Origin: an uncultured Verrucomicrobiae bacterium
Lineage (GTDB): Bacteria; Verrucomicrobiota; Verrucomicrobiia; Limisphaerales; Palsa-1400
Reading direction: 5' to 3'
NCBI GenBank assembly: GCA_963702845.1
Contig: OY969763.1
Location: 2,016,001-2,080,000, forward strand
Length of the DNA stretch: 64,000 nucleotides
Below the pieces are notes generated by a model. It made no database searches. It saw only the letters and a list, made by a program, of their open reading frames with translations, and was not told the origin of the DNA. Both the position numbers and the translations under genes were made by a program. Below, one piece after another: positions 2,612 to 60,908 of the stretch; position 1 is the first letter of the stretch; every line of letters starts with the position of its first letter.

Positions 2612-2620
2612 AAGTTGAAA

Positions 2621-2899
2621 TTAAAGATTTTCGAGTTTCTTTAGTTCCATGGCGAGCAACTCATAAATTATCGAACGCTTTTCAATGTAATCACACCGAA
2701 TTACGTCGCCATCGTATCGAAACACGACTCGATATCCTTTCACTCGCAAGCGCCAATAACCAGTAAATTCGCCCTGCAGAGGCTTGATATCTCCTCTTCC
2801 ATTGGGGAGTTGTTTGATGGCAGAGGCTAGGGCGTGTTTTGGCTCTGGGGCCAGCGCTTTCAGGAAATCGCGCACTGGGGTCGATAGCTCAACTTTCAT
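2621..2899 (-). CDS. Type II toxin, RelE/ParE superfamily
   Basis: 92 aa; GDIKPLQG..GYWRLRVKGYRVVF; overlaps the antitoxin stop. Confidence 0.85.
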   Translation of the reverse strand: MKVELSTPVRDFLKALAPEPKHALASAIKQLPNGRGDIKPLQGEFTGYWRLRVKGYRVVFRYDGDVIRCDYIEKRSIIYELLAMELKKLENL

Positions 2900-3137
2900 T
2901 GAGCGATTCGAGCGAGTGATATTTCATTTTGCCTGCGCGCGCGGCGCGGATTGCTTTAACGGCGTCTGGATTGGACATCAATTCCAATGACTCGACGAGA
3001 GATTCCAACTGCTCCTTTGACACGAGATAGGCGACCTTTTCGTCACGCCGGGTGATCGCGACGACGTGATCTTCGGCTTCTTTCAAAATACGTGGCAGGG
3101 AAGCCTGCGCCTTCGAGACTGAATACGTATTTTTCAT
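2889..3137 (-). CDS. Type II antitoxin, Phd/YefM family
   Basis: 82 aa; YSVSKAQASLPRIL...VAITRRDEKVAYLVS...ESLELMSNP; directly upstream of the RelE-like toxin. Confidence 0.85.
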   Translation of the reverse strand: MKNTYSVSKAQASLPRILKEAEDHVVAITRRDEKVAYLVSKEQLESLVESLELMSNPDAVKAIRAARAGKMKYHSLESLNES

Positions 3138-3173
3138 GAAAAGTTACATAGCATGAAAAATTCAACTTGTAAA
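3129..3173 (-). promoter_or_regulatory. TA promoter and operator (probable leaderless mRNA)
   Basis: Minus strand TTTACA-17 nt-(TGc)TATGTA, 7 nt before the ATG. A 10-bp inverted repeat ATTTTTCATG/CATGAAAAAT (3129-3138/3152-3161) and the palindrome TTTTCATGAAAA cover the start codon. Confidence 0.55.
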
Positions 3174-3181
3174 GGAAGGTG

Positions 3182-4172
3182 CTACTTCAGCATCAATGAC
3201 GCTAACGAGAAATAGAACAACAGAGAAAATATGTCGGTGAGGGCAAGGGTGATTGGGCCGGCAGCGATCTTGGGATCGAGTTTCAAGGCATGCAGGGCGG
3301 TTGGGATGCTGATTCCAAAAGTACCACGCGGCAAGGAATGAGAACACGATCGTGCAGCCCACGACGAGGCCGGCCATAACAGTGCCGCGCCATAGCCACA
3401 CAATAAAAAAAACGACCGTGCCGCTCGCGAGCCCAAGCAGAAACCCGACGGAAACTTCGCGGCCAAGTGCGCCAAAATACCAGCGCCACGTTGGAGTTTT
3501 AGCATGGAGAGCTTGAATGGATAACGAGACCGATTGGATGCTAACGCTTTCGCAAAGGCCAAGGACCAAAGCTAGAAAGAACGTTACGATGACGACTTTG
3601 GACAGCGTCATTTCGAATGCTCCCGAAATAAGCGCGCAGAGCACACCGCTGGTGATGGTTGCCAGGAGCCACGGGAATCGGTGACTGAACGCTTTTAAAG
3701 GCGACGCACCGTGCAATTGTGAGATACGAAAACCAATGGTTTCGAACACGTCATCGACTCGCTCGCGTTCCGCCAAATCGAACACTTCTTCCGTGAACAA
3801 ACCAACATCGAGGGTGCCGAGGAGTCGGTGTTGATCGTCGACGACCGGGAAGGCGAGGAATTTGTATAACACGAAGAACTCGCAGGCTTCGGCCAGAGTG
3901 GCTGTGTGCGGAATCGTTACGATACGGCGCACCGTGATTTCGGAGATTGGCTGTTCTAACGGCGCAACGAGTAAGCGCCGCGTTGGCAAAACACCAATGA
4001 GTTTTCCGGTGCTGTCGACGACGTAAAAGTAAACGATCGCTTCAGAAGGCTTTTGCGTCCTGATCGCAGCGAGCGCCTGGCCGGCAGTCATGTCGTGGCG
4101 CAACAGCGCGAAGCCCTTGCGCAAATATGGCAACACCGGCTCGTCGAGATGCTGTGGCTTGCCGTTGGTCAC
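3182..4172 (-). CDS. mgtE: MgtE-family magnesium transporter (CBS pair + membrane domain); one apparent +1 frameshift near 3325
   Basis: CBS domains (YFYVVD...LIGV; FPVVDD), RFPWLL. The C-terminal LKLDPKIAAGPITLALTD motif lies in the adjacent frame ending at 3182. Confidence 0.8.
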
Positions 4173-4199
4173 TATTTCTTTTTGTAAGTTCCAGACGGT

Positions 4200-5561
4200 T
4201 TATCCGCCCATTTTTCGGCACTGCTCATCAATCAACCCGATAGCCTTCTCAATCACATCTTGCGTGATGTTTAAGGCTGGACGCAAACGAATGGAGCGTT
4301 CGCCGCAGCGCAGGACCAACAGACCGACTTCGTACGCCCCGGTCCAGAAACGATTTCGCATTTCGGCAGTTGGCATCGTGAAGGACACCAATAAGCCACG
4401 GCTGCGAATCGCTTGAATCATGGGATGCTTTTTCGCGAGCCGCTGTAGTTCGCTGGTGAAAAAGTCGCCCATCTTGCGCGCGTTCTCCGGCAAATTTTCA
4501 CGTTCGTAAATGTGAAGGAAATGCGTCGAGCGGACGTAGTCGCAGAAATTGCCGCCCCAAGTGGAATTAATTCGACTCGGCGTGCGGAATACATTCTCCG
4601 GGACTTCGTCGAGACGAGGGCCGGCAATGATGCCGCATACCTGCGCTTTTTTGCCGAAGGCCATGATGTCCGGAGGCACATCGAAATGTTGCCAGCACCA
4701 ATGTTTGCCGGTCACGCCCATGCCGACTTGCACTTCGTCGTAAATCAACAAGATGTCACTTTCATCACAGATGTCGCGCAGCTTCTGCAACCATTCGCGA
4801 CGGAAATGATTATCGCCGCCTTCGCCCTGGATGGGTTCAATAATGATCGCGGCGATGTCGTGACCTTTTTGTTTGATGACGTCGCGAATCTGCGCTTCGG
4901 CTTCTTTTTCCTTTTGCACGACGTTCGGAAGCTGTTCTGCTTCCGGCAAGGTATGGTCAATGCACGGGGTGAGAATACGCGGCCACGGGAACTTTGCGAA
5001 ATAATCAGTCTTGCGCGGATCGGTGTTCGTCAGACTCATCGTGTAACCGCTGCGACCATGGAACGCGCGCTGGAAATGGATGATCTCCGTGCCGCGTTCA
5101 CCTCGACCAGCTGCGATGCTTTTGCGAACTTTCCAATCCATCGCCGCCTTCAATGCGTTCTCGACTGCGAGCGCGCCACCGTCGATGAAAAAGTAACGGT
5201 TCAACGGCAGAGCAGGGACGACGCGCGCGAACGTATCGACGAACGTGGCAAATTGAACGGAGTAAACGTCGGCGCTGGCAACCTTGATCTTTGCTGCGTT
5301 GAGTAAATCAGCTTTGACGTCCGGGTTGTCGAAATGGGGATGATTGAATCCCACCGGCATGGACGCATAAAACGAATACATGTCGATGAATTCGCGGCCA
5401 GTCGGTGCGTCGACGAGAATTGATCCGTGGCTGCGCTCGAGGTCGATGACTATTTTGAAGCCGTCGACGAGAATATGTTGCTCGAGATGAGCTACTGCGT
5501 TTTGCGGAGTTATTTTATCCGCTTTGGCCGGAGGTCGATTTGTTTTGTGCGTGCTAATCAT
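4200..5561 (-). CDS. lat: L-lysine 6-transaminase (class III PLP aminotransferase)
   Basis: FFIDGGALAVENALKAA, AFHGRSGYTMSLTNT, EPIQGEGGD, DEVQ, AFGKK, RINSTWGGN. Start placed at the ATG at 5561 because the longer ORF overlaps dop. Confidence 0.9.
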   Translation of the reverse strand: MISTHKTNRPPAKADKITPQNAVAHLEQHILVDGFKIVIDLERSHGSILVDAPTGREFIDMYSFYASMPVGFNHPHFDNPDVKADLLNAAKIKVASADVYSVQFATFVDTFARVVPALPLNRYFFIDGGALAVENALKAAMDWKVRKSIAAGRGERGTEIIHFQRAFHGRSGYTMSLTNTDPRKTDYFAKFPWPRILTPCIDHTLPEAEQLPNVVQKEKEAEAQIRDVIKQKGHDIAAIIIEPIQGEGGDNHFRREWLQKLRDICDESDILLIYDEVQVGMGVTGKHWCWQHFDVPPDIMAFGKKAQVCGIIAGPRLDEVPENVFRTPSRINSTWGGNFCDYVRSTHFLHIYERENLPENARKMGDFFTSELQRLAKKHPMIQAIRSRGLLVSFTMPTAEMRNRFWTGAYEVGLLVLRCGERSIRLRPALNITQDVIEKAIGLIDEQCRKMGG

Positions 5562-5691
5562 AAGGATCGGAAGATTCAACTTAGAATTGCACAACGAGCC
5601 TTTCAAGAAAATAGGGCGCAGCATGAATCGCTGAACCGCTCGGAGCGCGGACAATGATGTCGACGAGAGTACGAACGTGACGCGCGTTCCG

Positions 5692-7224
5692 CTAGACCAT
5701 TGCCGGTTCGGCGATCTTCTGCAGGTCGTCCGGTGTCTTTGCTGCATCAACAACCTGTGCAAAGGCGGCCAATTCTTCCGGCGTAAAGACGTTGAGCAAC
5801 GAAATTTTCAGTGGGCCACTGCTGCCTTGCAAGGTGACGTGGTCCCATTGCGCCGATACGACGTATTGCGAGAATTTCTGAATACACCGGCCACGGATGT
5901 ATGCGCGAGTCGTGCGCGGCGGTTCGGCAATTGCGCGTCGCACCAAACCTTCGTCCGGAATACCTTGCATCTGGCCGGCTTGTTCGAGCGCATAGTAAAG
6001 GCCCTGGTCTCGATCGAGGCGATGATATTCCAAGTCCAGACTTTGCAACCACGGATCCGTTGGACTCAGGTTTTGCGAGCTCTGAAATTGGCGAACGAGC
6101 GCAAGTTTTGCAACCCAATCGAGGCGATCCTTGCAGCGCATGGGATCGGCTTCAAGGTCTGTTAAAACTTTGTTCCAATCTGCGACCATTTTTATTTTCG
6201 CCGGATCGGTCAGATCACACAAATCGTTGACCGCATCCCAGTATTCGCGCTGAATCTGTAATGCGTTGGTGCAGCGATTATCATGCAGGCGCACTTCCCA
6301 TTGGAATTTCGAATCGCGCGAGATGCTCATCAACGATTGCAGGGGCTCGCTGAGGATTGGATAAACTCGCTTTGGATTACGCGCCAATGCTTCGAGAACC
6401 AGCGCGGTTGTTCCAATCTTCAGACGTGTCGCAAAAGGTGACATGTTGGCGTCGCCAAGAATGACGTGGAACCGACGGAAAAGAGTCGGATTGGCGTGTG
6501 GTTCATCACGCGTATTTACGATCGGACGCCGCTGCATTGTGTCGACGCTCTGCAGCTCGCTGAAGAAATCGCTTCGCTGCGAGATTTGGAATCCGGGCGC
6601 TAAGAATTTGTCTTCTTCCTCATAGGCAAACTTTCCAGCGCCGGCGATGATTTGCCGCGTTACGAGAAATGCCTGGATACCGCGAGCGAGTTTTTCCCAC
6701 GGCAAAGCCCGGGGAAGTAAATAATTCTCGTGGCAACCATAGCTGTGGCCGCGAAAATCAGTGTTGTTCTTATACAGCCTGACGGCAGACCCACGTTCTT
6801 CGGAGAGCTTTTGTCCGCAACGCATCAGGATGCGTTCACCGGCACGGTCATGGGCGACGAGTTCGTCGACGCTATTGCATTCCGGTGTGCAATATTCCGG
6901 ATGCGCATGGTCGTTGTAATAGCGGGCGCCGTTGCCGAGAACCAGGTCGCTCTTTATTTCCACGAACGTCAGCTCACGCTGCGCGTCCTGGGCGAAATAA
7001 TAGGTCTCGTCAACGTCCTGCCGTAATTCCTCCACGTGAAACCCACGCATATCTGCGTGAGGATCCTCACAATCGTAATCCCACCGCATGAGCACACCGG
7101 ACTTGGTTGCACTGCGCACCAACGCCATTGATTCGGCGACAACGTCTAAATTGTCCTCGTTGTCCCGTGCGATCCCGATTTCGGTTTCAGTCCCAAATTG
7201 GATTATCATTTTCTCTCTCTGCAT
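5692..7224 (-). CDS. dop: Dop-like deamidase/depupylase of the Pup/UBact system
   Basis: GTETEIGI, Dop-loop-like WDYDCEDPHADMRGF, NGARYYNDHAHPEY, YKNNTDFRGHSYGCHENY, NTRDEPHA, RRFHVILGDAN. Confidence 0.85.
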   Translation of the reverse strand: MQREKMIIQFGTETEIGIARDNEDNLDVVAESMALVRSATKSGVLMRWDYDCEDPHADMRGFHVEELRQDVDETYYFAQDAQRELTFVEIKSDLVLGNGARYYNDHAHPEYCTPECNSVDELVAHDRAGERILMRCGQKLSEERGSAVRLYKNNTDFRGHSYGCHENYLLPRALPWEKLARGIQAFLVTRQIIAGAGKFAYEEEDKFLAPGFQISQRSDFFSELQSVDTMQRRPIVNTRDEPHANPTLFRRFHVILGDANMSPFATRLKIGTTALVLEALARNPKRVYPILSEPLQSLMSISRDSKFQWEVRLHDNRCTNALQIQREYWDAVNDLCDLTDPAKIKMVADWNKVLTDLEADPMRCKDRLDWVAKLALVRQFQSSQNLSPTDPWLQSLDLEYHRLDRDQGLYYALEQAGQMQGIPDEGLVRRAIAEPPRTTRAYIRGRCIQKFSQYVVSAQWDHVTLQGSSGPLKISLLNVFTPEELAAFAQVVDAAKTPDDLQKIAEPAMV

Positions 7225-7360: not shown

Positions 7361-9070
7361 TCAGATGATTCCGGTGCCGAGCTCATCCTTTTTGAGGGGA
7401 CGAATCGGTCCGAGTCGAATCACGTTGTCGGGATCAAAATCTGTCAGCTTCAACCAATCTTCGGTGATGTCCGTCGGCGGGAAGAGATCGTTCTCGCTGT
7501 ATTCCTTCTTCATCGCGAGGATCAGGTCGTCGCGCGTAATCGTCGTGTCCTGTTTGGTCTCGATTGCGCGTTTGATCGCGAGACTCTTGGCACGTTCGAC
7601 AACCGCGGCAATGATCGCGCCGCTGGCGAGATCGCCACGATAGAGGAAGTCTTTTCTGCCACTGCGATAAACAATCTCCAGAAATTGATTTTCTGCGTTA
7701 TGTGAATAATGCGCTTCTGTAATTACCTTAGCCAACTCTTCGCGAGGTTCGGCCAATGGCAAGGTGTCCTTGAGATAAATCTCGTAAATCTTCTGCGCGC
7801 CTTCTTTGTTTGGGCGGTTGACCTTGATCTTTCGATCAATACGGCCCGGGCGCAGGATTGCGGGATCGATCAGATCAGCGCGGTTGGACGCGAGGATGAC
7901 CACCACGTTGGTGAGCGGTTCGATGCCGTCCATTTCCGTGCAGAACATCGGCACGACGGTGCTAAGTATATTGTTATACCGACCGGCGCGCCGTGTTCCT
8001 AGAATCGATTCAGCTTCGTCGATGAAAAGGAAGGCCAGATGGCCATCGGCCGCGCGTTCGCGACACTGAGCAAACAGGTCACGAACCTGACGCTCCGATT
8101 CACCGACCCACATGTTTAAAATTTCAGGGCCTTTGACGTGGAGGAAGAACTCAGGCCGATCAATGCCGGTTTCTGTCTTGATTTGTTGGCGCAGATTGAA
8201 CGCGGTGGCTTTGCCGAGCAGCGTCTTGCCACAGCCGGGAGGCCCGTGTAAGAGGAAGCCTTTTGGCACCGTGTGTTCAAACTTTTTGAACAAGGCGCGA
8301 TGCAAGAACGGCATTTCGATGGTGTCGCGAATTGCCTGAACGGCTTCGTCCTGTCCACCAATGGAAGACCACGGAATTTCGTTCACCGTTTCAAGGGCGC
8401 GTTCGATGCGTTTGCCAATGCCGATCACTTCGAGAGCAACGCGTTGGTTGGCGTCGAGGCGAATTTCCATGCCGGGCTTGAGCTTTTCCTTGGCGAGCAA
8501 CGAAGAACGGAGCAACACCGAACTGATCAAACCGGATTCCTGGCCGATGCGCAGACGTCCGCCAGAAAGTAGTTCATCAATGCGGACAATGGGACCGTTG
8601 CGCTCAAAGCCAAGCCCTTGCACGACGGCGAACGCTTCATTCAACAAGACGCGTTGGCCGACTTGCAAACTGGACAGCGGAATTTGCGGGTCGATGCGAC
8701 AGACGTAATCCGTGCCACCTACGCAGACGTGCGCTTTGTCGGGCTCGATGGGCATAAGAAATGTGCCGACTCGAAAAGCGGGTGAACGCAATTTTTCTAT
8801 GATGGCGTCCATTTTCTCGATGGTCTGGCGCGCCTGGTCGTTTACCTCTTCGATGTCCGCAACGCGGTCGCGGAGGTAAATCATGTCCATGATGGAACTG
8901 TGGCGCGGCGGCAACTTGCCAACGATCATGTCAACGAGCTGCAACGCAGATAACTGATCCATCTGGTCGCGGCTGAGGACATCGGGCGAACTCAAGGGAC
9001 TATCGGAACTTTCGCTGGGGGACTTCTGGCCGGAAGCGGAACCTGCCGGCCTCTTCTTCGATTCTGCCAT
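7361..9070 (-). CDS. arc: Proteasome-associated AAA+ ATPase (ARC/Mpa family)
   Basis: N-terminal coiled coil, two OB-like segments (GQRVLLNEA), Walker A GPPGCGKT, pore loop KGPEILNMWVGESER, Walker B FIDEAES, SRH ASNRADLIDPAILRPGRID. Confidence 0.9.
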   Translation of the reverse strand: MAESKKRPAGSASGQKSPSESSDSPLSSPDVLSRDQMDQLSALQLVDMIVGKLPPRHSSIMDMIYLRDRVADIEEVNDQARQTIEKMDAIIEKLRSPAFRVGTFLMPIEPDKAHVCVGGTDYVCRIDPQIPLSSLQVGQRVLLNEAFAVVQGLGFERNGPIVRIDELLSGGRLRIGQESGLISSVLLRSSLLAKEKLKPGMEIRLDANQRVALEVIGIGKRIERALETVNEIPWSSIGGQDEAVQAIRDTIEMPFLHRALFKKFEHTVPKGFLLHGPPGCGKTLLGKATAFNLRQQIKTETGIDRPEFFLHVKGPEILNMWVGESERQVRDLFAQCRERAADGHLAFLFIDEAESILGTRRAGRYNNILSTVVPMFCTEMDGIEPLTNVVVILASNRADLIDPAILRPGRIDRKIKVNRPNKEGAQKIYEIYLKDTLPLAEPREELAKVITEAHYSHNAENQFLEIVYRSGRKDFLYRGDLASGAIIAAVVERAKSLAIKRAIETKQDTTITRDDLILAMKKEYSENDLFPPTDITEDWLKLTDFDPDNVIRLGPIRPLKKDELGTGII

Positions 9071-11879: not shown

Positions 11880-13010
11880 TTAACCGACGATCTTCGACAG
11901 CAATTCGTCGTTGGTCTTGTGCTTCTTCAGCGCAGCGATCAACGTTTCCATCGCTTCGATCGGGTTCAAGTCCACCATCATGCGGCGCAACTTGCGGATC
12001 GAGTCGATATTCTTTGCCGCGAAAAGTTTTTCCTCTTTGCGCGTGCCGCTCTTCGGGATGTCGATTGCAGGGAACAAGCGACGTTCCGACAGCTTGCGGT
12101 CGAGGATCAATTCCATGTTACCCGTGCCTTTGAACTCCTGGAAAATGAGCTCGTCCATGCGGGAACCAGTGTCGACCAGCGCTGTGGCGATGATTGTCAG
12201 CGAACCGCCTTCTTCAATTTTGCGCGCGGATGCGAACATCTTGCGCGGAATTTCCAAAGCGCGCGCATCGACGCCGCCGGTCATGGTCCGACCGCTGCCG
12301 CCATGCACGCTGTTGTAAGCGCGAGCGACGCGAGTGATCGAATCCAGCAATACGAAAACGTCCTTGCCGCTTTCAACCATGCGACGGCAGCGCTCAATCA
12401 TGAAGCGCGATAAACGCACATGCGTTTCGAGATCCTGGTCGTTCGATGAAGCAACCACTTCGGCTTTCACCGAGCGTTGAAAATCAGTGACTTCTTCCGG
12501 GCGCTCGTCGATCAGCAGCACCATCACGTAAACTTCCGGATGGTTCGTCGACACGGCGTTGGCAATTTGCTTAAGAATCGTGGTCTTACCGGTGCGAGGC
12601 GGCGCAACAATCAAACCGCGCGTGCCTTTGCCGATGGGAGTGACCAGGTCGATAATGCGCGTTTCGAGCAAATCAGGTGACGTTTCCAGACTGATCTTCT
12701 CAATCGGATCAATCGTGGTGAGGTTCTCAAACCGCACCGACCGGGTATATTCGTCAAACGTCAGGCCGTTGACCTTTGCGACGGTGCGAAGCTGCGGGCT
12801 ATTACCGCGATGAGGCGGTTGGGTTTCACCCTCAACGAGGCACCCTTCGCGCAGGAAATTGCGCTTGATAGTATCCGGCGTGACAAAAATGTCGGAAGGC
12901 TTTGGATGATAGTTGTTTTCCTTTGTCCGCAAGAACCCGAAACCCTTTTCAGAAATTTCGAGAAAACCCGACCCGTAGTCGGTGACAGTGGCGCTAGGCG
13001 CTTGATTCAT
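11880..13010 (-). CDS. rho: Transcription termination factor Rho (short form, 376 aa)
   Basis: GFGFLR (RNP1-like), DIFV, P-loop APPRTGKT, LIDERPEEVTD, LDSITR, EFKGTGNME. Confidence 0.95.
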   Translation of the reverse strand: MNQAPSATVTDYGSGFLEISEKGFGFLRTKENNYHPKPSDIFVTPDTIKRNFLREGCLVEGETQPPHRGNSPQLRTVAKVNGLTFDEYTRSVRFENLTTIDPIEKISLETSPDLLETRIIDLVTPIGKGTRGLIVAPPRTGKTTILKQIANAVSTNHPEVYVMVLLIDERPEEVTDFQRSVKAEVVASSNDQDLETHVRLSRFMIERCRRMVESGKDVFVLLDSITRVARAYNSVHGGSGRTMTGGVDARALEIPRKMFASARKIEEGGSLTIIATALVDTGSRMDELIFQEFKGTGNMELILDRKLSERRLFPAIDIPKSGTRKEEKLFAAKNIDSIRKLRRMMVDLNPIEAMETLIAALKKHKTNDELLSKIVG

Positions 13011-28845: not shown

Positions 28846-30719
28846 GTGATGAAGTTTGTTTTTCGGGCTCGTTCTGAGGAGTGTAATCGGTTACGTGGCC
28901 AGGCACGCTGTATTCGTAAGGACCACGGAACACTTCAACTTCCTTATCAAAGTTGCCGTGTGGCGGCGGAGTCGGCGTCTGCCATTCCAATGTCGTCGCT
29001 CCCCACGGGTTGTCGTTAGTGATCTTCTTACCGTTGTTGATGCTCCAGAAGAAATTGAAGATGAACGGAATTTGCGCCAGGCCGAGGCACCAGGCCGCGA
29101 TGGAAACGTTCTTGTTCAAGTCGATGACCCATTTGCTCAAACCGATGATGTCGCCGGCTGCAGAATAGGTCACGCCACCGTCATACAGACGGCGGGACAT
29201 GCCTTCCATGCCTTGAATGAACATCGGCATGAAGATCAGGTTCATGAAAATGAACGAGAGCACAAAGTGAACGCGGCCCCAGGTTTCGCTCATGAAACGC
29301 CCCGTTATTTTTGGATACCAATAATATATGCCGGCAAAAAGACCGAAGATCGTTCCTGGCGCTACGACGTAGTGGAAGTGCGCGATGACATAATAAGTGT
29401 CGTGCAAATGAATGTCGCTGGCGTTAAAGCCAAGTGGCAATCCAGTTAGACCGCCAATTCCGAACATCGGCAGAAAGGCCAGTGCGAACAGCATCGGCGT
29501 GTTGAATCGTATCGAACCGCCCCACAAGCGAAATGAAGAGCGCCGTCAAAATGATGACGGACGGAATCGAAATCATCATCGTGGTGGTTTGGAAGAACGT
29601 CGCAATGCGCGTTCCCATGCCGGTCATATACATGTGGTGCGCCCAGACGATGAACGACAGAAAACCGATGACCAACGAAGCGTAAACCATCGAGCGATAA
29701 CCCCAGATTGGTTTGCGCGTGTTGTTAGCGATGACTTCAGTAACGATACCCATCGCCGGGAGAATCAAAACGTACACTTCAGGATGTCCGAGGAACCAGA
29801 ACAAGTGCTGCCACAGCAATGGGCTGCCACCACCGCTGACGGGCAGGGCCTGTCCGGAAACAACCAAGCCGGTCGGCAGGAAGAAGCTCGTGCCGAGAAG
29901 ATTGTCGGCGAGTTGCAGAACACCGGCGGCTTCGAGCGGCGGAAACGCGAGCAACAAGAGGAACGCCGTCACGAACTGCGCCCACACGAAAAACGGTAGA
30001 CGCATCCAAGTGAGCCCCTTTGCGCGTAATTGGATAATCGTGGTAATGAAGTTAACGGCACCGAGTAGTGACGATGTAATCAGGAACACCATGCCGATAA
30101 TCCAGAAAGTTTGTCCGTTTGGAACGTGCGGATCAGCGACTGTCGCAAGCGGTGAGTAAGACGTCCAACCGGATTTGGCTGCACCGCCGGGAATGAAAAA
30201 GCTCGCGAGCATGATAACGCCACCAACGAAATAGAATTGGTAGCTGACCATGTTTACGCGCGGGAAGGTCATATCAGGCGCGCCGATTTGGAGCGGGGTG
30301 ACGAAATTACCGAAGGCGCCGAACGCCAAAGGCACAATCGCGAGGAACACCATGATCGTTCCATGCATTGCACCAAACGAATTGTACAGGTCAGGCATCA
30401 TGACGCCGGGTTGTTTTGACAGCGGCTCAATGCCAACCATTCCAGGGCCGAGAATTTTGTAGAGCCATTTGCCGACGACTGGCATGGCTTGGCCGGGATA
30501 CGCCAATTGCCAACGCATCATCATCATGAGCACGAAGCCCAAAAACAAAAAGAGCAGGGCAGTAATGCCGTATTGCACGCCGATGACTTTGTGGTCGGTG
30601 GAGAAGATGTACTTGCGCCAGAAACCTAACTCTTCGTGGTGAGCATCGTGGCCATGTCCATGATCGTGATCATGACCATGGTCGTGCGTATGACTATGTG
30701 CAGATTGTGCAGAGTCCAT
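28823..30719 (-). CDS. coxA: Cytochrome c oxidase subunit I (A1 type); apparent +1 frameshift near 29529
   Basis: STDHKVIG, MHGTIM, WFLGHPEVY and WAHHM are in the first frame; HDTYYVIAHFHY and MSRR are in the next. Confidence 0.92.
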
Positions 30720-34864: not shown

Positions 34865-36298
34865 TCAAAGCGTGCTCTGCACCTTCCGTCGCGCGATGCG
34901 CCCCGTGGACTCGGTCAGCAAATTAATCCACATCTGCGCTTCCTTGGAACCGGCATCAAATGGATTTAACATGTGCAACGAGTTCCCGCCTTCCGCCCCA
35001 ATGATTTCCCAATCAATGTAGTAGGAGCAGCCTTCGTTTTTCAGTAACTGCATGGCTTGGGAACGAACGGCCGCACGGGTGTTAACCGGGGCGGCTAAGG
35101 TCGCTTCGTTGATTTCCTTCTGCGTCAACTGCCACGGCTTTGGCGTATTAGCGAGCGACAGGCCGAGGCTGCGTGCCGGGTCGACCTGGTGGAATTCGAG
35201 GTCCTGGCTCTTTAGCCAAGGATGGTTCCACGCGATTTTTTCCTGTTCGCAAAATTGTTGGAGCAGCCAGCGCTTGGTGATCCAGTCCACTTTGCCGACG
35301 AGCGTTTCCGGCTTCGTCGCGAGTGCCTGCAATACCTCACCCCAGATTTGGATGAGATCGTCCGTTTCCTGGTCGCGGCCTTTCAATTCCGACTTCGCGG
35401 CGGCGTGGTATTCCATCAACAAATGAACCGCATCCGCGCAACGCCCATCGGAGAGCTGAACCAGCCACGGGCCTTCAGGTTGATGCGATAAATTGCGGAA
35501 CGCGACAACCGCATCGGCCAAAACAATCTTCGGCACAGCATTCAACTCCAACAAATCGAGAACAATCGAAGTGGTGCCCACTTTCAGCAAAAGCGATGTT
35601 GGCAGAACGTTGGTGTCGCCGTGCAGCAGATGCAGTCGGCGATACTTGCGCGCATCGGCCAGAGGTTCGTCACGCGTGTTGATGATGGCGCGATTGAATT
35701 GCACCCACTCGAACAAATCGTTGTTGATGTAGTCAGCGCGCTGCGACATCTGGAACACGTTGTCCATGCCGGGACGCGCAAGTTCCCCGCGAGTTTCGGC
35801 AGCCATCGTTGCACCAACACGACCCGCGCTGACGTAAAGCATGCGTAACGTCAGGAAAGCGAGTAGGGAATGGACGTTCGTTTCCGTCAATGGCGCGCTG
35901 CGGCGGACGAGATAATTTTCATGGCATCCGAACGTCGCGCCGGAGTAGTGATCGATGTTGTTGCGAATGAAATTAATTTCGCGCTCAAGCCGCATCGATT
36001 TGAGCGCGTTCATCAAAATCGTATCACCGGCCTGGTCGTAGCGGAGGATATCAACGAGGCTCAGACATTCAGGTGTGCAATACTCCAGATGGCCCATGTC
36101 GATGTAGCAGCGGCCGCCGTTAAAAAGAAAACCGCCGTTCCCGGCGGGTTCATCCCAATCACGTTGGTGAACGTCGATCAGTCCATAGCGTTGGTCGCGG
36201 AAAACCCAATCGCGCACCCGAGTGATTGCGCTGGGCGTTCCCGGAAAATCATTCGTTAAACAACCGTATTCGGTCTCAAGACCAACGATGCGATTCAT
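34865..36298 (-). CDS. pafA: PafA-like Pup/UBact-protein ligase
   Basis: RIVGLETEYG, FLFNGGRCYIDMGHLEY, RNNID..GATFGCHENY, NTRDEPLAD..YRRLHLLHGD, VDWITKRWL; no Dop loop; follows prcA. Confidence 0.85.
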   Translation of the reverse strand: MNRIVGLETEYGCLTNDFPGTPSAITRVRDWVFRDQRYGLIDVHQRDWDEPAGNGGFLFNGGRCYIDMGHLEYCTPECLSLVDILRYDQAGDTILMNALKSMRLEREINFIRNNIDHYSGATFGCHENYLVRRSAPLTETNVHSLLAFLTLRMLYVSAGRVGATMAAETRGELARPGMDNVFQMSQRADYINNDLFEWVQFNRAIINTRDEPLADARKYRRLHLLHGDTNVLPTSLLLKVGTTSIVLDLLELNAVPKIVLADAVVAFRNLSHQPEGPWLVQLSDGRCADAVHLLMEYHAAAKSELKGRDQETDDLIQIWGEVLQALATKPETLVGKVDWITKRWLLQQFCEQEKIAWNHPWLKSQDLEFHQVDPARSLGLSLANTPKPWQLTQKEINEATLAAPVNTRAAVRSQAMQLLKNEGCSYYIDWEIIGAEGGNSLHMLNPFDAGSKEAQMWINLLTESTGRIARRKVQSTL

Positions 36299-36350
36299 AC
36301 TACCTATCCAGAAAATCTAAAAACTCACGCTAAAGTGCTGCTTCTCTTCA

Positions 36351-36381
36351 CTTCAGCCTTCAGCATTCATACTTTAGCCTT
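36351..36381. repeat. Degenerate 7-bp tandem repeat in the prcA-pafA spacer
   Basis: cttcagc|cttcagc|attcata|ctttagc|ctt. Confidence 0.5.
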
Positions 36382-36384
36382 ATT

Positions 36385-37125
36385 TCATAACCCCAACTCA
36401 GCCGCGCCCTGCGCCTGATACCGCGCCGCTCGCGCACCTTCTCGTGCCAACCAGCCAACTTCGACAACGCGGCCTTTTACAACCTCACGCCAACCCGCTT
36501 TTCGTTCCTGCTCGCTCGGCATTTTGTCGTCGAAATGTTTGTTCTCAACCAACATCCACCACGCCTGCATCAGGACTTCGGCAATTTGTTTACGATCCGT
36601 GACATTTTTGAAATTCTCATTCAACCATTTTTGCGCTGAGGCTTCACCCTCGGGCGTCGACGCCGCAGTGACGATCCCGCCAATCTGCATTTGAAATGAA
36701 CCATCGAAATGCAATCGGAACAACAGATCTTTGGCGGGCTCGTTGCCTAATTCGACCAGCAGCAATTCCACGAGAAACGGTGCGCTGTAAATTTGTTCGA
36801 AATTCGTTTTAAGCTGCGGGCTGAGTCCGAAGCTGATCAGTCGTCGCAGGCTGACATCTTCCGGCGCGCGGGTGAAAGCTTCCATGTGCGCGGCGTCGAT
36901 CGCCGCCTGGCGAATTTTCTCGATGTCCGCTGGATGGCCAAGGCCGGCGAGGCCGTGGCGGTCGAACAGCTCGAATACTTTTGATTGCCCGCTGCCGACG
37001 CCTACCAAAAGTATCCCGTCAGGCAAGCTGGCGGCAAAAACCGGCGCACCGCCCTTGAGCTGTTCGCGGACGTAATCACGGCGATTCGCGACCGCCTCTA
37101 ACCACCGATATGGTTCCTCTGTCAT
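36385..37125 (-). CDS. prcA: 20S proteasome alpha subunit
   Basis: EEPYRW...RRDYVREQL, SKVFELFDR, LRRLISFGLSPQLK; located between prcB and pafA. Confidence 0.8.
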   Translation of the reverse strand: MTEEPYRWLEAVANRRDYVREQLKGGAPVFAASLPDGILLVGVGSGQSKVFELFDRHGLAGLGHPADIEKIRQAAIDAAHMEAFTRAPEDVSLRRLISFGLSPQLKTNFEQIYSAPFLVELLLVELGNEPAKDLLFRLHFDGSFQMQIGGIVTAASTPEGEASAQKWLNENFKNVTDRKQIAEVLMQAWWMLVENKHFDDKMPSEQERKAGWREVVKGRVVEVGWLAREGARAARYQAQGAAELGL

Positions 37126-37167
37126 GATTTCTTTGTTTGTAGGAGAGAGGTAACGAGTCTCTAATCT

Positions 37168-37941
37168 CTACACGCCTAAAAATTCCTTCTGTTTCGCGTC
37201 CGCAATCGTTTCAACACCGTTTTCAGTCAGCAACTTCAACGTCGCAAACGTGTCACTCGCTGGATTGACGCCGCCAGTAGCAGAGTCGAACTCCGAAGCT
37301 GTCATCAACAGCCTCAAAGCAAATTTCACGGCCTCCTTGGTATTCATCTGCGAAGGTTTCGGTTTGCCGTAATTTTCTTCGAAGCTCAGGATGCTGCGAA
37401 TGGTGCCGGATCCAGAACCCGACGCCGCATAGCCAACAGCCTGGAACTGCGCCCCGAGCGGATCGTAGAAGAAAATACGCGGTTGGGCAGGGGAGACCGT
37501 GTGGTCCACGCCTGCGAACAACGGCACAACAATCCCAACCCCTTGCATCGTCATCGGAAGATTTTCGCGCAAAAGTCGGGCAAGAGCACGCACCCGCGCC
37601 GGCAAACTCAGCGGTTGCAGCTGGCTGCGTCGATAATACTCAAAAGACGTCTGCAACGTCCGCGCCATTTCGAAGGCCGTGGCCGGCACCCCGGCAATGG
37701 CGAGCAAAGACGTCGAATCAATCTCGATGATTTTATCAACGCGATCAGTGACAATCACGTTTCCAGCCGTGGCACGACGATCCCCGGCCATCAACACGCC
37801 ATCGGCACAGTGGAATGCGAAAACCGTGGTTGCCTGGGTTTGAACGGGAGCTGCCGCCGAAGATTCAACTCTGGACGGCGACACTCCTTGTGTCTTAAGC
37901 AGTGCGAAGAAATCGCCTGCAATAGCGTAACTGTGACTCAT
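37168..37941 (-). CDS. prcB: 20S proteasome beta subunit (Ntn hydrolase, 37-aa propeptide)
   Basis: A-TTVFAF...AGDRRATAG...DK gives Thr1, Asp17 and Lys33; ASGSG; FDSATGG. Confidence 0.9.
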   Translation of the reverse strand: MSHSYAIAGDFFALLKTQGVSPSRVESSAAAPVQTQATTVFAFHCADGVLMAGDRRATAGNVIVTDRVDKIIEIDSTSLLAIAGVPATAFEMARTLQTSFEYYRRSQLQPLSLPARVRALARLLRENLPMTMQGVGIVVPLFAGVDHTVSPAQPRIFFYDPLGAQFQAVGYAASGSGSGTIRSILSFEENYGKPKPSQMNTKEAVKFALRLLMTASEFDSATGGVNPASDTFATLKLLTENGVETIADAKQKEFLGV

Positions 37942-38108
37942 TGGCCAGTGCGTTGGCGGTATCGTTTCGCCTGGTCGGGATCGACCTTGCGCATGCGTTT
38001 GAGCAATTCTTCAGTATTGGGTTTCTCTACTTTGGGAGCGCTGGGCCCCTCACCGCCGCCACCGCCACTCGGGGCGACCGGGCGATTTTTTTGAGCTTGG
38101 TCAGGCAT
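37938..38108 (-). CDS. ubact: UBact, ubiquitin/Pup-like modifier protein (56 aa; not in the ORF track)
   Basis: Translated by hand: MPDQAQKNRPVAPSGGGGGEGPSAPKVEKPNTEELLKRMRKVDPDQAKRYRQRTGQ*. The stop overlaps the prcB start (ATGA). The C-terminal R[T/S]G[E/Q] is the UBact signature. Confidence 0.92.
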   Translation of the reverse strand: MPDQAQKNRPVAPSGGGGGEGPSAPKVEKPNTEELLKRMRKVDPDQAKRYRQRTGQ

Positions 38109-38296
38109 AATATTTAGCTTCTAAATTTTTCCCTAAACGCCTTTCACTAAAGTTCGCAGAAATTCAAAAGAGTTCAAGAGCCCTCTATCAAATATACATA
38201 TACGGAACCGTTGATATAAAAGGATATAGGTGCCCACCCTGTACGCCCCATGAAGGATTAAAACCCCCGTCTGCCCGCTCGGACGGTTCGCCCACC

Positions 38297-38424: not shown

Positions 38425-38453
38425 TTGACACATTAGCTACTTCACAATATACT
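38425..38453 (+). promoter_or_regulatory. Near-consensus sigma-70 promoter
   Basis: TTGACA-17 nt-TATACT, pointing toward smc but about 630 nt upstream of it. Confidence 0.7.
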
Positions 38454-39081: not shown

Positions 39082-42000
39082 ATGTATCTGAAGAATTTAA
39101 CGGTTTTAGGGTTTAAGTCCTTCGCGGACAAGACTTCCCTGAACTTTCAGCCGGGTGTAACCGCCATCGTAGGCCCCAATGGCTGCGGTAAGAGCAACGT
39201 CTCGGACGCTATTAGATGGGTACTCGGCGAACAATCGGCCAAAGCTTTGCGCGGCGGCGAAATGGCCGACGTCATCTTTAACGGCACCGACAGTCGCAAG
39301 CCTCTCAGCATGGCCGAAGTGTCCCTGACCCTCGGCGGCGTCGACGCAGAACACCTTCAAGCCGCCGGTGTGGAGATTGCCTATGATGAAGTGACTTTGA
39401 CCCGGCGCGTATTCCGCGATGGCGGCTCCGAATACTTCATCAACAAAACCCCGTGCCGCCTCAAAGACGTTCAGCAACTGTTCATGGGCACCGGCGTTGG
39501 CCGCACCAGTTACAGCATCATGGCGCAGGGCAACATCACCCAGATCCTGTCCAGCAAACCGGAAGATCGCCGGCTGATTTTCGAAGAAGCCGCCGGCATC
39601 ACCAAATTTAAGGCGCAGAAAAAAGAGGCCATGCGCAAGCTCGAGTATACCGAGCAAAATCTGTTGCGCGTCCAGGACCTCATTAGAGAAGTGAAACGCC
39701 AGATCGGCTCGCTGCAACGTCAGGCCGGCAAGGCGCGTCGTTACAAGCAGATCATGGGCGACCTCCAGCACCTCGATACGCAACTTGCCCGTCATCAACT
39801 CGACGTCTTGCAGGGCGACATTCGTGAGCGCAATGAACGCACGGAACAGTTGCGCGAGCAAGATCGAAGGCTTGAGCCAAAGCGTGTTAACCGGCGAAAC
39901 CGAAATCGCCCAATTGCGCGAACGGCTATCCGAACTCGAACAAGAAATCAGCCAGGCCCAACAGCAAGGTTTGCAGCTCAAGAGCGAAGCAGATCGTAAC
40001 GAGAGCCGGATTCATTTTAACGAAGAGCGTTTGCGCGAGTTGGAGCAACAAAATGCGCAAGCGACGACTGAGATCTCGCAGGCTGACGAGCGCAAGCTCG
40101 CCGCTGAACAGGAATTAACACAAGTCACAGAACGCCTCGCCATCTCTGCCGAGACACTGAAGGAGTTGCAAGCAACCCTGGAATCGCGCCGCCAGGCGTT
40201 GGTTGCGGTTGAATCGGAAGCCCGCGCCCAACAGGAAACGCTCAGGCGCGTGCAGCAGGAGGCCTTGCAAGCAGGGCAACAACTCGCGCGCGTGCGCAAT
40301 GAAATCACCGCGCTCGATTTGCAGAAGGAAGGCAACGCGGTTCGGCTACAGAAACTTTCGGCTGAAAAGGTCCAACTCGAGCAGGAACGCGTCGGCCTGG
40401 AAGAACGCCTCAAAGAATTTTCCGCAAATTTCGAAGTCGAAATGCTCAATGCGCAGACGCATCGCGGAACGGTGCAGGAACGCGAGCAGCGCCTGAAACA
40501 AATCGATCAGGAACTCAATTCAGCCAATCGCCAGCTTCAAGACCTTCTCCGTCTGCAGGCCGAAAAACGTTCCCGCTTGAACGTTCTCGAACAACTGCAA
40601 AACGACCACGAAGGTTTCTCCAGCGGTGCTCTGTCCGCGCTGCGCAACGCCCAGCAAGTTCTAGGTTCGCTCGCTGACAAAATCCGCGTTCCGAATGATT
40701 ACGTCGTCGCCATCGAATCCGCCCTCGGCCATCACCTCCAATTGGTCCTGACCCAGGCCCCGGAATCCGCCCAGCAAATCATCGACGACCTGCGCAACGG
40801 CAAAAAAGGCCGCGCCAGCATCGCCGCTGTCGACCTCGTATCGCAGGTCTCCGAACCTGCTGTATCGCCGGTTTCCAAACCGGCTGACGGTGCGCCTTTC
40901 CCAACCGGCTCAGCATTGGCATTAGACGTGGTAGAATGCGACGATCCCATTCGCCCTCTACTGGCACGTCTGCTCGGCAACACTTTAATCGTCGCACGAC
41001 CTGTCCGCGGCAACTGCTGCCTGGAAACAAACCAACGGCGCATTCAATTTCGTCACCCGCACTGGTGACCTGCTCAACAGCAGTGGCATCTTCACCGGTG
41101 GTGCCGGCGGCAACGACAAAGCTTCCGCCTCAATTCTCGGTCGAAAAAATCAAATCGCCGAATTGCAGACCGCTGCCAACACCTTGCAAGAGCAAGTCAA
41201 TGACGCCAGCAAAACCAAAGGTGCGTTGCTGAGCGAACAGACCCAGTTGCAAGCCAGCCTGCACGAAGCGAAGACCGAACTGCACACGCAGGAAGTGGCC
41301 ATCGCTACTCGTAAAGGCGAGTTCAACGCCCTGCAGAATTCTCAGCGCGTCCTCGAGCAAAAAGTGCAGACGGTGGTTTACGAAATCACCAGCCTCGCCG
41401 CACAAGAGGAAGAAGGTTTGCGCAAGCGCCAGGGAATGGCCGACCGCGTCGGGGCTTTGGAAGAGCAGGAGCGCACCGCCCTCGAAGCAGTCCAGAATTT
41501 GACCGCTGCCCTTGAAGGCTTGCGTCAGCAACGCGACGCCGCAACCACGGCGATGACTGAAACCAAAGTCGCCTATGCTTCCGAAGAACAGCTTTTAGCG
41601 TCGCTGCGAAATCAGCAAAAACCGCTGGAGTCGCGCATCACAGAACTCGCGCACCTCGCAGAGCAGCGACGCAATGAAATTCGCGCCTTCATCGACCGCA
41701 AGGCGCAAGCAGACCGTGAAAACATTCAGTCGCGCCACGCGATTGAAGCGTTGCAACAACAGCGCGAACAGGTGAACAACCAGGTCGCCGATTTGATTGC
41801 GAATAAAGATACGCAGGAGGAACAGATCGGAACCGCAGAGGAAGCGCTACGCGAACAACGCCGTTGCCTGACTGAATATCAGCAGCAACGCGGAACCATC
41901 GAGGTCGAACTCGCGCAGAAGAACATGGCCGCGCAAAATCTGCGCGACCGCATGCAGGAAAAATACCAGATCAATCTGGATGAGGTGCGCAGCGAGTGCA

Positions 42001-42863
42001 TCACGATCACCATCGCCGACGAAGGCCAGCCACGCGTAAGCACGATGTCGCCCGAAGAAATGGCGGCCACCGGTGCGGCGACCGATTGGGATGCCATTTC
42101 GCAACAGGTCGCCGAGTTGCAAAAGAAGCTCGACGAAATGGGCCCGGTAAACCTCGTCGCCATCGACGAATACGAAGAAACCGAGCAGCGCTATCAATTC
42201 CTGACCAAGCAAAACGACGACCTCGTCCAGGCCAAGGTTCAGCTCAGCGAAGTCATCAACCGCATCAACGTCCAGACCCGCGAGATGTTCGTGGAAACAT
42301 TCGAGAAGATTCGGACGAACTTCCGCTCAATGTTCACGGAAATCTTCAGCGGCGGTAAAGCGGACCTGATCCTGCACACCGATGGCGATGTGCTCGAAAG
42401 CGGCATCGACATCGTTGCCCGCCCGCCCGGCAAACAGCTGCAAACGATTTCGTTGCTGTCCGGTGGTGAACAAACTATGACCGCCGTCGCGCTGTTGTTC
42501 TCCATCTATCAGGTCAAGCCCAGCCCGTTCTGCGTGCTGGACGAATTGGACGCGCCGCTCGACGAATCGAACGTCGGTCGCTTCATCAAAGTGTTGCAAC
42601 GATTCCTTGTGCACTCGCAATTCGTCATCATCACCCACAACAAGCGCACAATCTCAATGGCAGACGTGCTCTACGGCGTCACGATGCAGGAGCACGGCGT
42701 GAGCAAGATCGTCGGCGTGAAATTCCACAAATCCGAAGAACCGAAGCCACTGGAGCAATTGACCGATCGCAAACTCGCGCCCGGCGAAGCCCCAGGTGAA
42801 ACTTCAGCTCCGCAGCCCGAAGCTGCGCCGCCGCAGTCGCCCGAAGCGGTCATGGCAAAGTAG
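39082..42863 (+). CDS. smc: Chromosome segregation protein SMC; two apparent +1 frameshifts (near 39858 and 40995)
   Basis: GFKSF, Walker A GPNGCGKSN, coiled coils, hinge (ALGHHLQ..GRA), signature LSGGE, Walker B LDELDAPLD, ITHNK, spread over three frames. Confidence 0.93.
40838..40886 (+). repeat. Double-hairpin REP-like element translated in frame inside smc
   Basis: 44/49 identical to 16031-16079, with a compensatory A-T to G-C pair; encodes VSQVSEPA-VSPVSKPA. Confidence 0.75.
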
Positions 42864-59211: not shown

Positions 59212-60908
59212 ATGGAATGGTTGGTTCAAACATTGCGGCAGTATCCGGAAATTGCGATTTTTCTCGCGCTGGCGGTCGGGTTTTGGATTGGGAATCTCAA
59301 GTTTGGCTCGTTTAGTCTTGGGGTTGTTACGAGTGTTTTGCTTGCGGGGGTTTTGATTGGACAACTTAAAATTCAAATCTCGCCGAATGTAAAATCGACA
59401 TTTTTTCTGATGTTCCTGTTCGCCGTAGGTTACGGGGTCGGCCCGCAATTTTTTCGAGGTCTCAAAAGTGGTGGGTTAAAACAGGTGTTATTTGCAGTGA
59501 TACTGGTCTTTTGTTGTCTGCTGACCGCTGTGCTCATGGGCAAGGTCCTGGGTTACGATGCCGGGTCGACGGCTGGGCTTCTTTCCGGAGCCTGCACCAT
59601 TTCGGCTGTGTTGGGTGTTGCGTCAGACACGATCAATCAATTGGCGATAACGCCGAGAACAAAAAACGCAATTGATCGACAACATGCCGGTTGCGTACGC
59701 CGTCACCTATTTGTTTGGCACGGCTGGTTCAGCGTGGATATTGGCTTCGCTGGGGCCAAAAATCTTGCGTGTTGATTTGCCGAAAGCATGCAAGGAATAC
59801 GAAGAAAAGATGGGCGGTATGGCACCGGACGATGGCATCGGCGTCGGCTTACACAGAGTGGCTGGTGCGTGCTTACAGGGTCAGCGGTGCAAGCGAGGTT
59901 CGGGACAAAACGGTTGAGGCAATCGAGGAGAGCTTCCGTCCGGATCGTGTGTTTATCGGTCGAATACGCCATGGAGAGCACATTACTGACGCAGAGCCTG
60001 CATCAGTGATTGCCGAAGGTGATGTTGTTGCGGTTGCGGCGCGTCGCAGCGTGCTGTTGCCGATCGAGCACCTTTTTGGAAAGGAAGTTGATGATCGCGA
60101 ATTGATGGATGTTGCCACGGAAACGTTGGACGTGGTCATAACACGCAAGGAGATTGTCGGTCGCACCATCAAAGAGATTGCCGGCTCGGACAAGATGCGG
60201 GAACACGGACGTTGCGTGTTTGCAAAAAAAATCATGCGTGGTGGGATCGAAATGCCCTTGCACCCGAATACAACCATTGACCGGGGCGATGTGGTCACGC
60301 TTGTGGGCGCACATAAGGATGTGGAGAACGCTGTCACGTTGCTTGGCTATGCAGATCGTACCACGGATAAAACCGACATGACGTTCATGGGCCTGGGAAT
60401 TGTGATTGGAGCATTGATTGGTGCTATCACACTTCACGTCGGGAAAATTCCTTTAAGCCTGAGTACTAGCGGAGGTGCGTTGTTTGCGGGACTCGTTTGC
60501 GGTTGGTTGCGTTCGGTTAATCGTGCCTTCGGGCAAATTCCGGCGCCTGCGTTGTGGGTCTTCAATAATGTCGGGCTGTGCGGCTTCATCGCGGTTGTTG
60601 GAATCACTGCCGGTCCGGGCTTTGTCGCTGGACTGAAAAGCAATGGCCTCACGCTTTTGCTCGCGGGCATCGTGGTTACGACGGTGCCGTTTATCGTTGG
60701 TTTGTTGATCGGTAAATATTTTTTCAAATTTCATCCCGCGATAAATCTGGGAGCTTGCGCTGGAGCGCGCACGACCACCGCAGCATTGGGGGCCATCGAG
60801 GAAGCAGCGCAAAGCAAAGTGCCGGCGTTGGGTTACACCGTTCCGTACGCCGTTGGAAATACGCTCCTGATTATCTGGGGCGTGGTGATCGTGATTATTA
60901 TGAAATGA
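59212..60908 (+). CDS. aspT: AspT/YidE/YbjL family antiporter; two apparent +1 frameshifts (near 59655 and 59833)
   Basis: [23 protein letters not shown], two TrkA_C segments, [19 protein letters not shown], across three frames. Confidence 0.82.

Follow-up and report, generated by a model that had tools for sequence, protein, structure and literature searches.

A UBact-proteasome gene set in a Limisphaerales-like verrucomicrobium, and a candidate tyrosine-independent docking of its ATPase on the 20S core

We analysed a 64,000-nucleotide stretch of contig OY969763.1 from an uncultured Verrucomicrobiae bacterium (the window), in which an initial annotation had pointed to a small gene for UBact, a ubiquitin-like tag of the kind of Pup, at the head of a proteasome operon. 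The window encodes, on its minus strand, the tag, the two subunits of a 20S proteasome, a member of the Pup-ligase family, a Dop homologue and a proteasomal ATPase (ARC), as follows.

37938..38108, minus strand: ubact, a basic tag of 56 aa with an ATG start and a terminal RTGQ, matched by the UBact models
37168..37941, minus strand: prcB, 20S beta subunit, 257 aa with a 37-aa propeptide, Thr1 being T38
36385..37125, minus strand: prcA, divergent 20S alpha subunit, 246 aa, with K49 and D141 kept and Q22, G25 and L118 changed
34865..36298, minus strand: PafA-like enzyme, putative UBact ligase, 477 aa, without a Dop loop, with F33, F57 and D429 and an alpha-loop motif of its own
5692..7224, minus strand: dop, predicted deamidase and de-tagging enzyme, with a Dop loop and a DHAH motif
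7361..9070, minus strand: arc/mpa, proteasomal AAA+ unfoldase with OB domains (PF17758, PF16450, PF00004)
7364..7375, minus strand: C-terminal TGII of ARC in place of GQYL, without a penultimate Tyr

The 171-nt open reading frame (ORF) singled out by the initial annotation was confirmed on the sequence: it codes for 56 residues ending in RYRQRTGQ, and its TGA shares the tetranucleotide ATGA with the ATG of prcB, a translational overlap. Its assignment to UBact rather than Pup was borne out by hidden Markov model (HMM) searches (E 7e-25), with 87.1 bits on NF033388 (cut-off 35) and 86.2 bits on PF20513 (cut-off 27.8), and no match to the Pup models PF05639 and TIGR03687; PF05639 matched nowhere in the host genome. 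The tag carries the R[ST]G[EQ] end of UBact, as RTGQ, and not the GG[EQ] end of Pup. R[ST]G[EQ] is reportedly the C-terminal motif given in the 2017 paper on UBact, and it agrees with the 145 distinct tails that we counted (82 RTGQ, 38 RTGE, 14 RSGE and 11 RSGQ). The G[EQ] end is invariant, with Gln in 93/145 and Glu in 52/145, an alternation that fits Glu as the active, conjugated form. Among loci longer than 3 kb with Glu-ended tags, dop is kept in 31 of 36. UBact is basic (isoelectric point 10.1 versus 4.2 for a Nonomuraea Pup), and the mean charge of its last 30 residues is +4.4 over 110 tails, as against -9 and -5 for two Pups. Many database relatives of ubact are annotated as 'hypothetical protein'. 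Compared with 35 distinct, equally long relatives, ubact shows 733 synonymous and 165 non-synonymous codon differences, and the RYRQRTGQ end was found in 25/25 UBact matches from 41 genomes; this synonymous excess and the conserved ends argue that the ORF is not a product of chance. The ATGA coupling with prcB was found at 97/112 close loci, but at 10/63 distant ones.

Residues D54, K70, G84, S176 and D219 of PrcB correspond to Asp17, Lys33, Gly47, Ser129 and Asp166, catalytic residues as named in the cited passages of PMC4792962, and each of these positions, like Thr1, is conserved in 62/62 distinct beta sequences. The residue at position -1 is Ala in 61 of these 62 sequences, the Ala-Thr site being located here at 37828-37833 (minus strand); eukaryotic beta subunits are described in the same passages as having Gly(-1) before Thr1 (PMC4792962). 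Sorted by identity, beta subunits have Ala(-1) in 71/71 cases at >=60% and in 40/43 at 50-60%; below 50% we found 13 Gly, 5 Ala and 5 Ser. With every catalytic residue invariant, Ala(-1) is unlikely to be the sign of an inactive beta subunit. Ser(-1) was seen in some verrucomicrobial loci from small genomes (L268-L272, L275). The alpha subunit scores 16.8 bits in Pfam, under the cut-off of 22.4. Its predicted fold has a predicted local distance difference test (pLDDT) score of 92.5 and a template-modelling (TM) score of 0.76 to solved bacterial alpha subunits, and its Q22, G25 and L118 stand at Gly23, Arg26 and Glu119 of the Mycobacterium tuberculosis protein.

The gene order ubact, prcB, prcA, Pup-ligase-family gene on the minus strand (38108 down to 34865), as first annotated, is supported by coordinates and family matches, and the claim that the window holds a complete set of tag, ligase, deamidase, ATPase and 20S genes also stands, all six being present as the single copies found in the 6.03-Mb host genome (assembly completeness 89.8%). 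They do not form one contiguous cluster: dop (5692-7224) and arc (7361-9070) lie on the same strand, detached by 26 kb downstream of the ubact operon. The two halves are apart throughout the host's family, by 1.4 Mb on one contig in one of its genomes (G017), and in 20 same-family UBact relatives dop was never found in the upstream stretch examined, two of these stretches ending at a contig edge. It lies directly upstream of ubact in 3/4 relatives from other families, where contiguous arc-dop-ubact-prcB-prcA-ligase clusters are common. The split is thus a family trait, and the presence of both halves in one window is incidental.

To describe the distribution of the system we used 41 genomes, the host's own and those of 40 relatives. 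Of these, 25 hold UBact, 26 the Pup-ligase family and 26 ARC; the genes occur in the same genomes, with one genome holding ARC and Dop only, and in 0/15 of the rest. An even draw across the phylum gave matches in 11/401 genomes, indicating a patchy distribution. The closest named loci, with ligase identities of 96-97%, are from Verrucomicrobiota, and the next ones include Limisphaerales and Pedosphaera.

ARC scores 421.5 bits on TIGR03689, under the cut-off of 504.75, and its TGII end recurs in a genome of the same genus (G001, locus L026), the identity of the two tails leading us to reject a sequencing error. We collected ARC tails from genome loci and from a pattern scan of metagenomes (at least 120 loci). 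This gave 80 distinct tails, 61 of them from loci that also hold ubact. A penultimate Tyr occurs in 0/80, and the last residue is Ile or Val in 78, the two exceptions being out-of-frame pieces (L028, L133); such an end is found in 8% of the long ORFs of the host genome. At ARC identities between 45% and 100% the tail still ends in Ile/Val, and the linker before this end varies, as do residues -3 and -4. We rejected the view that a tail without Tyr is peculiar to Verrucomicrobiota, as it is common to loci at 45-58% ARC identity; the ARC of our Nonomuraea control ends in GQYL. In a quick tree, from which one short row was dropped, 17 UBact-linked and 18 Tyr-tailed ARCs are split by one branch (SH-like approximate likelihood ratio test, SH-aLRT, 100). 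The charge of the ARC coiled coil averages -3.5 over 58 coils of UBact systems; only three coils of Tyr-tailed ARCs were usable, with -1, -1 and 0.

According to the passages cited, a C-terminal GQYL is the means by which Mpa and Bpa/PafE of mycobacteria open the gate of the 20S core (PMC8755798, PMC12288473, PMC9599533). The docking described there for M. tuberculosis brings the Tyr into contact with Arg26 and Glu119 of the alpha subunit and the backbone into contact with Asp144, and it pairs the carboxylate with Lys52 (PMC9599533). We numbered alpha positions by profile alignment to M. tuberculosis PrcA and compared 123 UBact-type with 120 actinobacterial sequences. Lys52, which is Lys49 here, is conserved in 123/123 and 120/120, respectively, and Asp144 in 122/123 and 120/120. 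Arg26, found in 120/120 actinobacterial sequences, is present in 3/123 UBact-type ones, and Glu119, also 120/120, in 0/123, with Leu, Ile, Met or Val in 122. At position 23, whose Gly we take to line the tyrosine site, Gly is found in 120/120 versus 0/123, replaced mostly by Gln (111) or Arg (10). This pattern is what a Tyr-free tail in a rebuilt pocket would predict.

Two members of the Pup-ligase family had to be told apart. The 5692-7224 protein scores 445.1 bits on the Dop model TIGR03688 (under the cut-off of 492.3) and 341 on the PafA model, is closest to solved Dop and shows both a Dop loop and a DHAH motif. For the 34865-36298 protein, first annotated as a PafA-like ligase, membership of the Pup-ligase family held up, as did its likeness to PafA in lacking a Dop loop and in having F33, F57 and D429 at the positions of Phe34, Phe47 and Asp418, diagnostic positions taken from Table 1 of PMC7947786, a source covered in part. 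The name fits less well in that the protein falls under the cut-offs of both the PafA and the Dop models and its alpha-loop resembles neither enzyme (WVQ instead of the ATT of PafA, with V199 and Q200 at the threonine positions). Among 18 ligases of UBact loci, Phe34 is kept in 17 and Phe47 in all 18, and the Asp418 position holds Asp in 12, Asn in 5 and Glu in 1; the DVGSH insertion that follows the catalytic Asp in PafA is kept in the three deepest of them, and His174 in 10/18. No variation was seen in the ATP and metal motifs among 88-90 relatives. The spacing at the catalytic Asp is Dop-like (DMGH), with Met in 87/88 at the place of the His that follows in Dop. By gene position and shared indels, we infer that this protein is a diverged ligase, which may have arisen by a duplication of its own rather than from PafA. 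Its derivation from actinobacterial Dop was rejected (approximately unbiased test, p-AU, 0.029).

Taken together, these data make it likely, with a probability of roughly 0.8, that the host is a Limisphaerales-like verrucomicrobium carrying an intact UBact-proteasome system that works like the Pup-proteasome pathway, including a Tyr-free docking of ARC. We observed the genes, their matches to families, their co-occurrence and the residue patterns; each chemical step and the docking are fitted to them by analogy with the Pup pathway. Dop (5692-7224) would turn the C-terminal Gln of UBact into Glu by deamidation, a step that the initial annotation had held to be necessary and that we likewise take from the Pup pathway. 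The 34865-36298 enzyme would then phosphorylate the gamma-carboxylate of UBact with ATP and couple the tag to substrate lysines; by the same analogy, the TGE remnant expected earlier on lysines is right and would amount to +287.11 Da. The mildly acidic coiled coil of ARC would bind the basic tag, ARC would unfold the substrate and thread it into the 20S core for degradation, and Dop might also remove and recycle the tag. ARC is proposed to dock on the alpha ring without tyrosine, its free carboxylate, placed after two mostly beta-branched tail residues, pairing with Lys49 in an alpha pocket where the Arg and Glu that contact the Tyr are gone and a hydrophobic residue has been gained. From these alignments we lean cautiously towards a separate, tyrosine-independent activator-20S code in UBact systems, made of the Ile/Val tail and of a pocket rebuilt at Gly23, Arg26 and Glu119.

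A number of observations weigh against this interpretation, in its docking part and in its ligase part. The changes of tail and pocket map to one deep branch, pointing to a single event and not to repeated co-evolution. Ile-ended tails are also found outside the UBact clade (P0098, P0044, P0028, P0112), and a Nitrospirota ARC inside that clade ends in RTIE. The actinobacterial alpha controls are all close to Nonomuraea. In M. tuberculosis, according to the source passages, Glu119 has an effect on beta processing as well, and its change may concern assembly. As for the putative ligase, both of its HMM scores stay under cut-off and Dop gives the higher one (278.7 bits, versus 263.3 for the PafA model TIGR03686, cut-off 551.3), and its predicted structure is nearer Dop (Z 46.4, root-mean-square deviation 2.6, 427 residues aligned) than PafA (Z 41.6, 3.3, 435 aligned). 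Thr183/Thr184 of the PafA alpha-loop are replaced in 18/18 ligases, and the alpha-loop is predicted to be non-helical, at low confidence (pLDDT <50 at residues 199-201); loss of these threonines slows PafA, according to the part of PMC7947786 cited. In trees that included just two actinobacterial references for each enzyme and no outgroup, the ligase groups with PafA in 594/1000 bootstraps and with UBact-associated Dop in 406 (p-AU 0.47, neither being rejected); once a single long outgroup is added, the counts turn to 187 for PafA and 813 for UBact-associated Dop.

The alternative that best survives keeps the tagging pathway as described but does without the ARC tail for docking: ARC would bind through its beta-grasp domain only or through some adaptor, or would be mainly an unfoldase, the tail and Lys49 being otherwise employed. 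It can draw on the variable tail positions -3 and -4 and on the loss of the tyrosine motif which, in the passages cited, is described as needed for gate opening in mycobacteria, where a beta-grasp hairpin is said to give Mpa a second contact. We regard it as a less probable account, given that the terminal Ile/Val is kept at 45-100% ARC identity despite the variable linker, that Lys49 is invariant (123/123) and that ARC and prcAB co-occur. Moreover, no Bpa match was obtained in the 89.8% complete host assembly, where the Bpa control itself matched nowhere, and the same assembly has no ORF of at least 120 aa ending in G[QH]Y[LF].

A second alternative concerns the chemistry: the 34865-36298 enzyme could transamidate Gln-ended UBact directly, Dop serving for de-tagging without a priming role. 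Such an activity has a precedent in an engineered Dop-to-PafA hybrid that used Pup-Gln directly (PMC7947786, cited passages), and it would suit both the combination of DMGH spacing with PafA-type residues and the Gln end of 93/145 tags. However, that hybrid required the Dop loop in the same account (PMC7947786), a loop missing from this enzyme, the His that follows the catalytic Asp in Dop is Met in 87/88, and 52/145 tags end in Glu, so we consider direct transamidation improbable. We give slightly less credit still to the idea that this gene encodes another hydrolase, or a partner without activity, with UBact acting unconjugated as a free adaptor. The higher Dop than PafA values in HMM score and predicted fold and the loss of both alpha-loop threonines would agree with it; the invariant ATP and metal motifs, the invariant G[EQ] end of the tag, the pafA position of the gene in the operon and the rejection of the tree joining the ligases with actinobacterial Dop alone speak for conjugation instead. 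Finally, a chance origin of the small ORF, which its 56 codons and low complexity might suggest, is ruled out for practical purposes by conservation, namely the HMM E value, the 733:165 synonymous excess and the coupling at 97/112 close loci.

The window genes that flank the two halves of the system or separate them are seldom or never their neighbours in relatives, and we therefore claim no extra partner gene. Directly after dop (1073-5762, minus strand) come an L-lysine 6-transaminase, mgtE and a piperideine-6-carboxylate dehydrogenase; the transaminase and the dehydrogenase are a lysine catabolic pair, not located beside dop in the relatives examined. A short Rho-like gene of 376 aa (11880-13010, minus strand) has homologues close to the operon in 3 further loci (L083-L085), and a glycine-decarboxylase-like gene, labelled by sequence reading and not by family search, stands beside ubact in 13 loci (including L047, L048 and L053-L056). 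A scan for sigma-70-like promoters gave 4 sites versus 2.4 +/- 1.6 expected, and a terminator scan likewise did not rise above chance. The site nearest ubact is the following.

38191..38220, minus strand: weak sigma-70-like match (9/12), no better than chance, some 80 nt upstream of ubact

A near-consensus site (11/12) at 38425-38453 on the plus strand points toward smc, divergent from ubact. The smc gene (39082-42863, plus strand) is spread over three reading frames relative to an intact relative, and coxA (29424-30719), mgtE (3162-4172) and a permease gene (59212-60908) also look frameshifted; these frameshifts are probably indel errors of the assembly.

Related genes were also seen elsewhere. 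A same-family genome holds a second, very divergent module (L064, G005:C1:218000-232000) whose ATPase ends in NQPA and in which a small ORF ending in GGQ lies between two Pup-ligase paralogues, with no 20S genes in the stretch examined; another extra paralogue is found at G001:C535. In viral contigs we found no match to the UBact pattern and could confirm no relative of Dop or PafA. One sequence filed as a bacteriophage (L147, MT835496.1) has an actinobacterial-type arc-dop-pup-pafA locus and is probably host DNA.

If the separate docking code is real, UBact and Pup proteasomes would be non-interchangeable. Two very different proteasome copies are reported in Leptospirillum ferrooxidans, in the passages cited from PMC3511204, and such a code could insulate them from each other. 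Should the docking inference hold, it would provide a natural exception, with its residues named, to the penultimate-tyrosine rule for opening of the 20S gate. The locus as such adds one genome to a catalogued system, and it offers a clean six-gene kit for UBact biochemistry.

The UBact-proteasome system is already known, and this locus is a further example of it. UBact is said to have been named by Lehmann et al. in 2017, from Gram-negative phyla. For Verrucomicrobia, tags resembling Pup together with proteasome genes already appear in PMC2588565, and a separate Gram-negative cluster of 20S subunits in PMC5666114, as far as the portions cited go. Our literature search, in the parts of the sources that it covered, returned no biochemistry of UBact, including covalent conjugation to lysines, and no mention of the Tyr-free tail, the rebuilt pocket or Ala(-1) (sources including PMC11354881, PMC3511204, PMC4254994, PMC11947121 and PMC7203096).

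Compared with known UBact loci (NF033388, PF20513), the one described here has the same tag family with its R[ST]G[EQ] end, the same six genes and the same ubact-prcB-prcA-ligase order; only the layout differs, arc-dop being detached as in the rest of the host's family. The Ala(-1) of its beta subunit is common to most verrucomicrobial loci, whereas more distant loci mostly have Gly. With the actinobacterial Pup system (PDB 4BJR, 4B0R, 7PXA) it shares homologous enzymes, ATPase and 20S core, the G[EQ] end of the tag, the beta catalytic residues, the Dop loop in Dop, and alpha Lys52 and Asp144. It differs from that system in its basic tag devoid of Pup model matches, in an ARC ending in TGII instead of GQYL, in the replacement of alpha Gly23, Arg26 and Glu119, in a ligase alpha-loop without both threonines, and in the Ala(-1) of the beta subunit.

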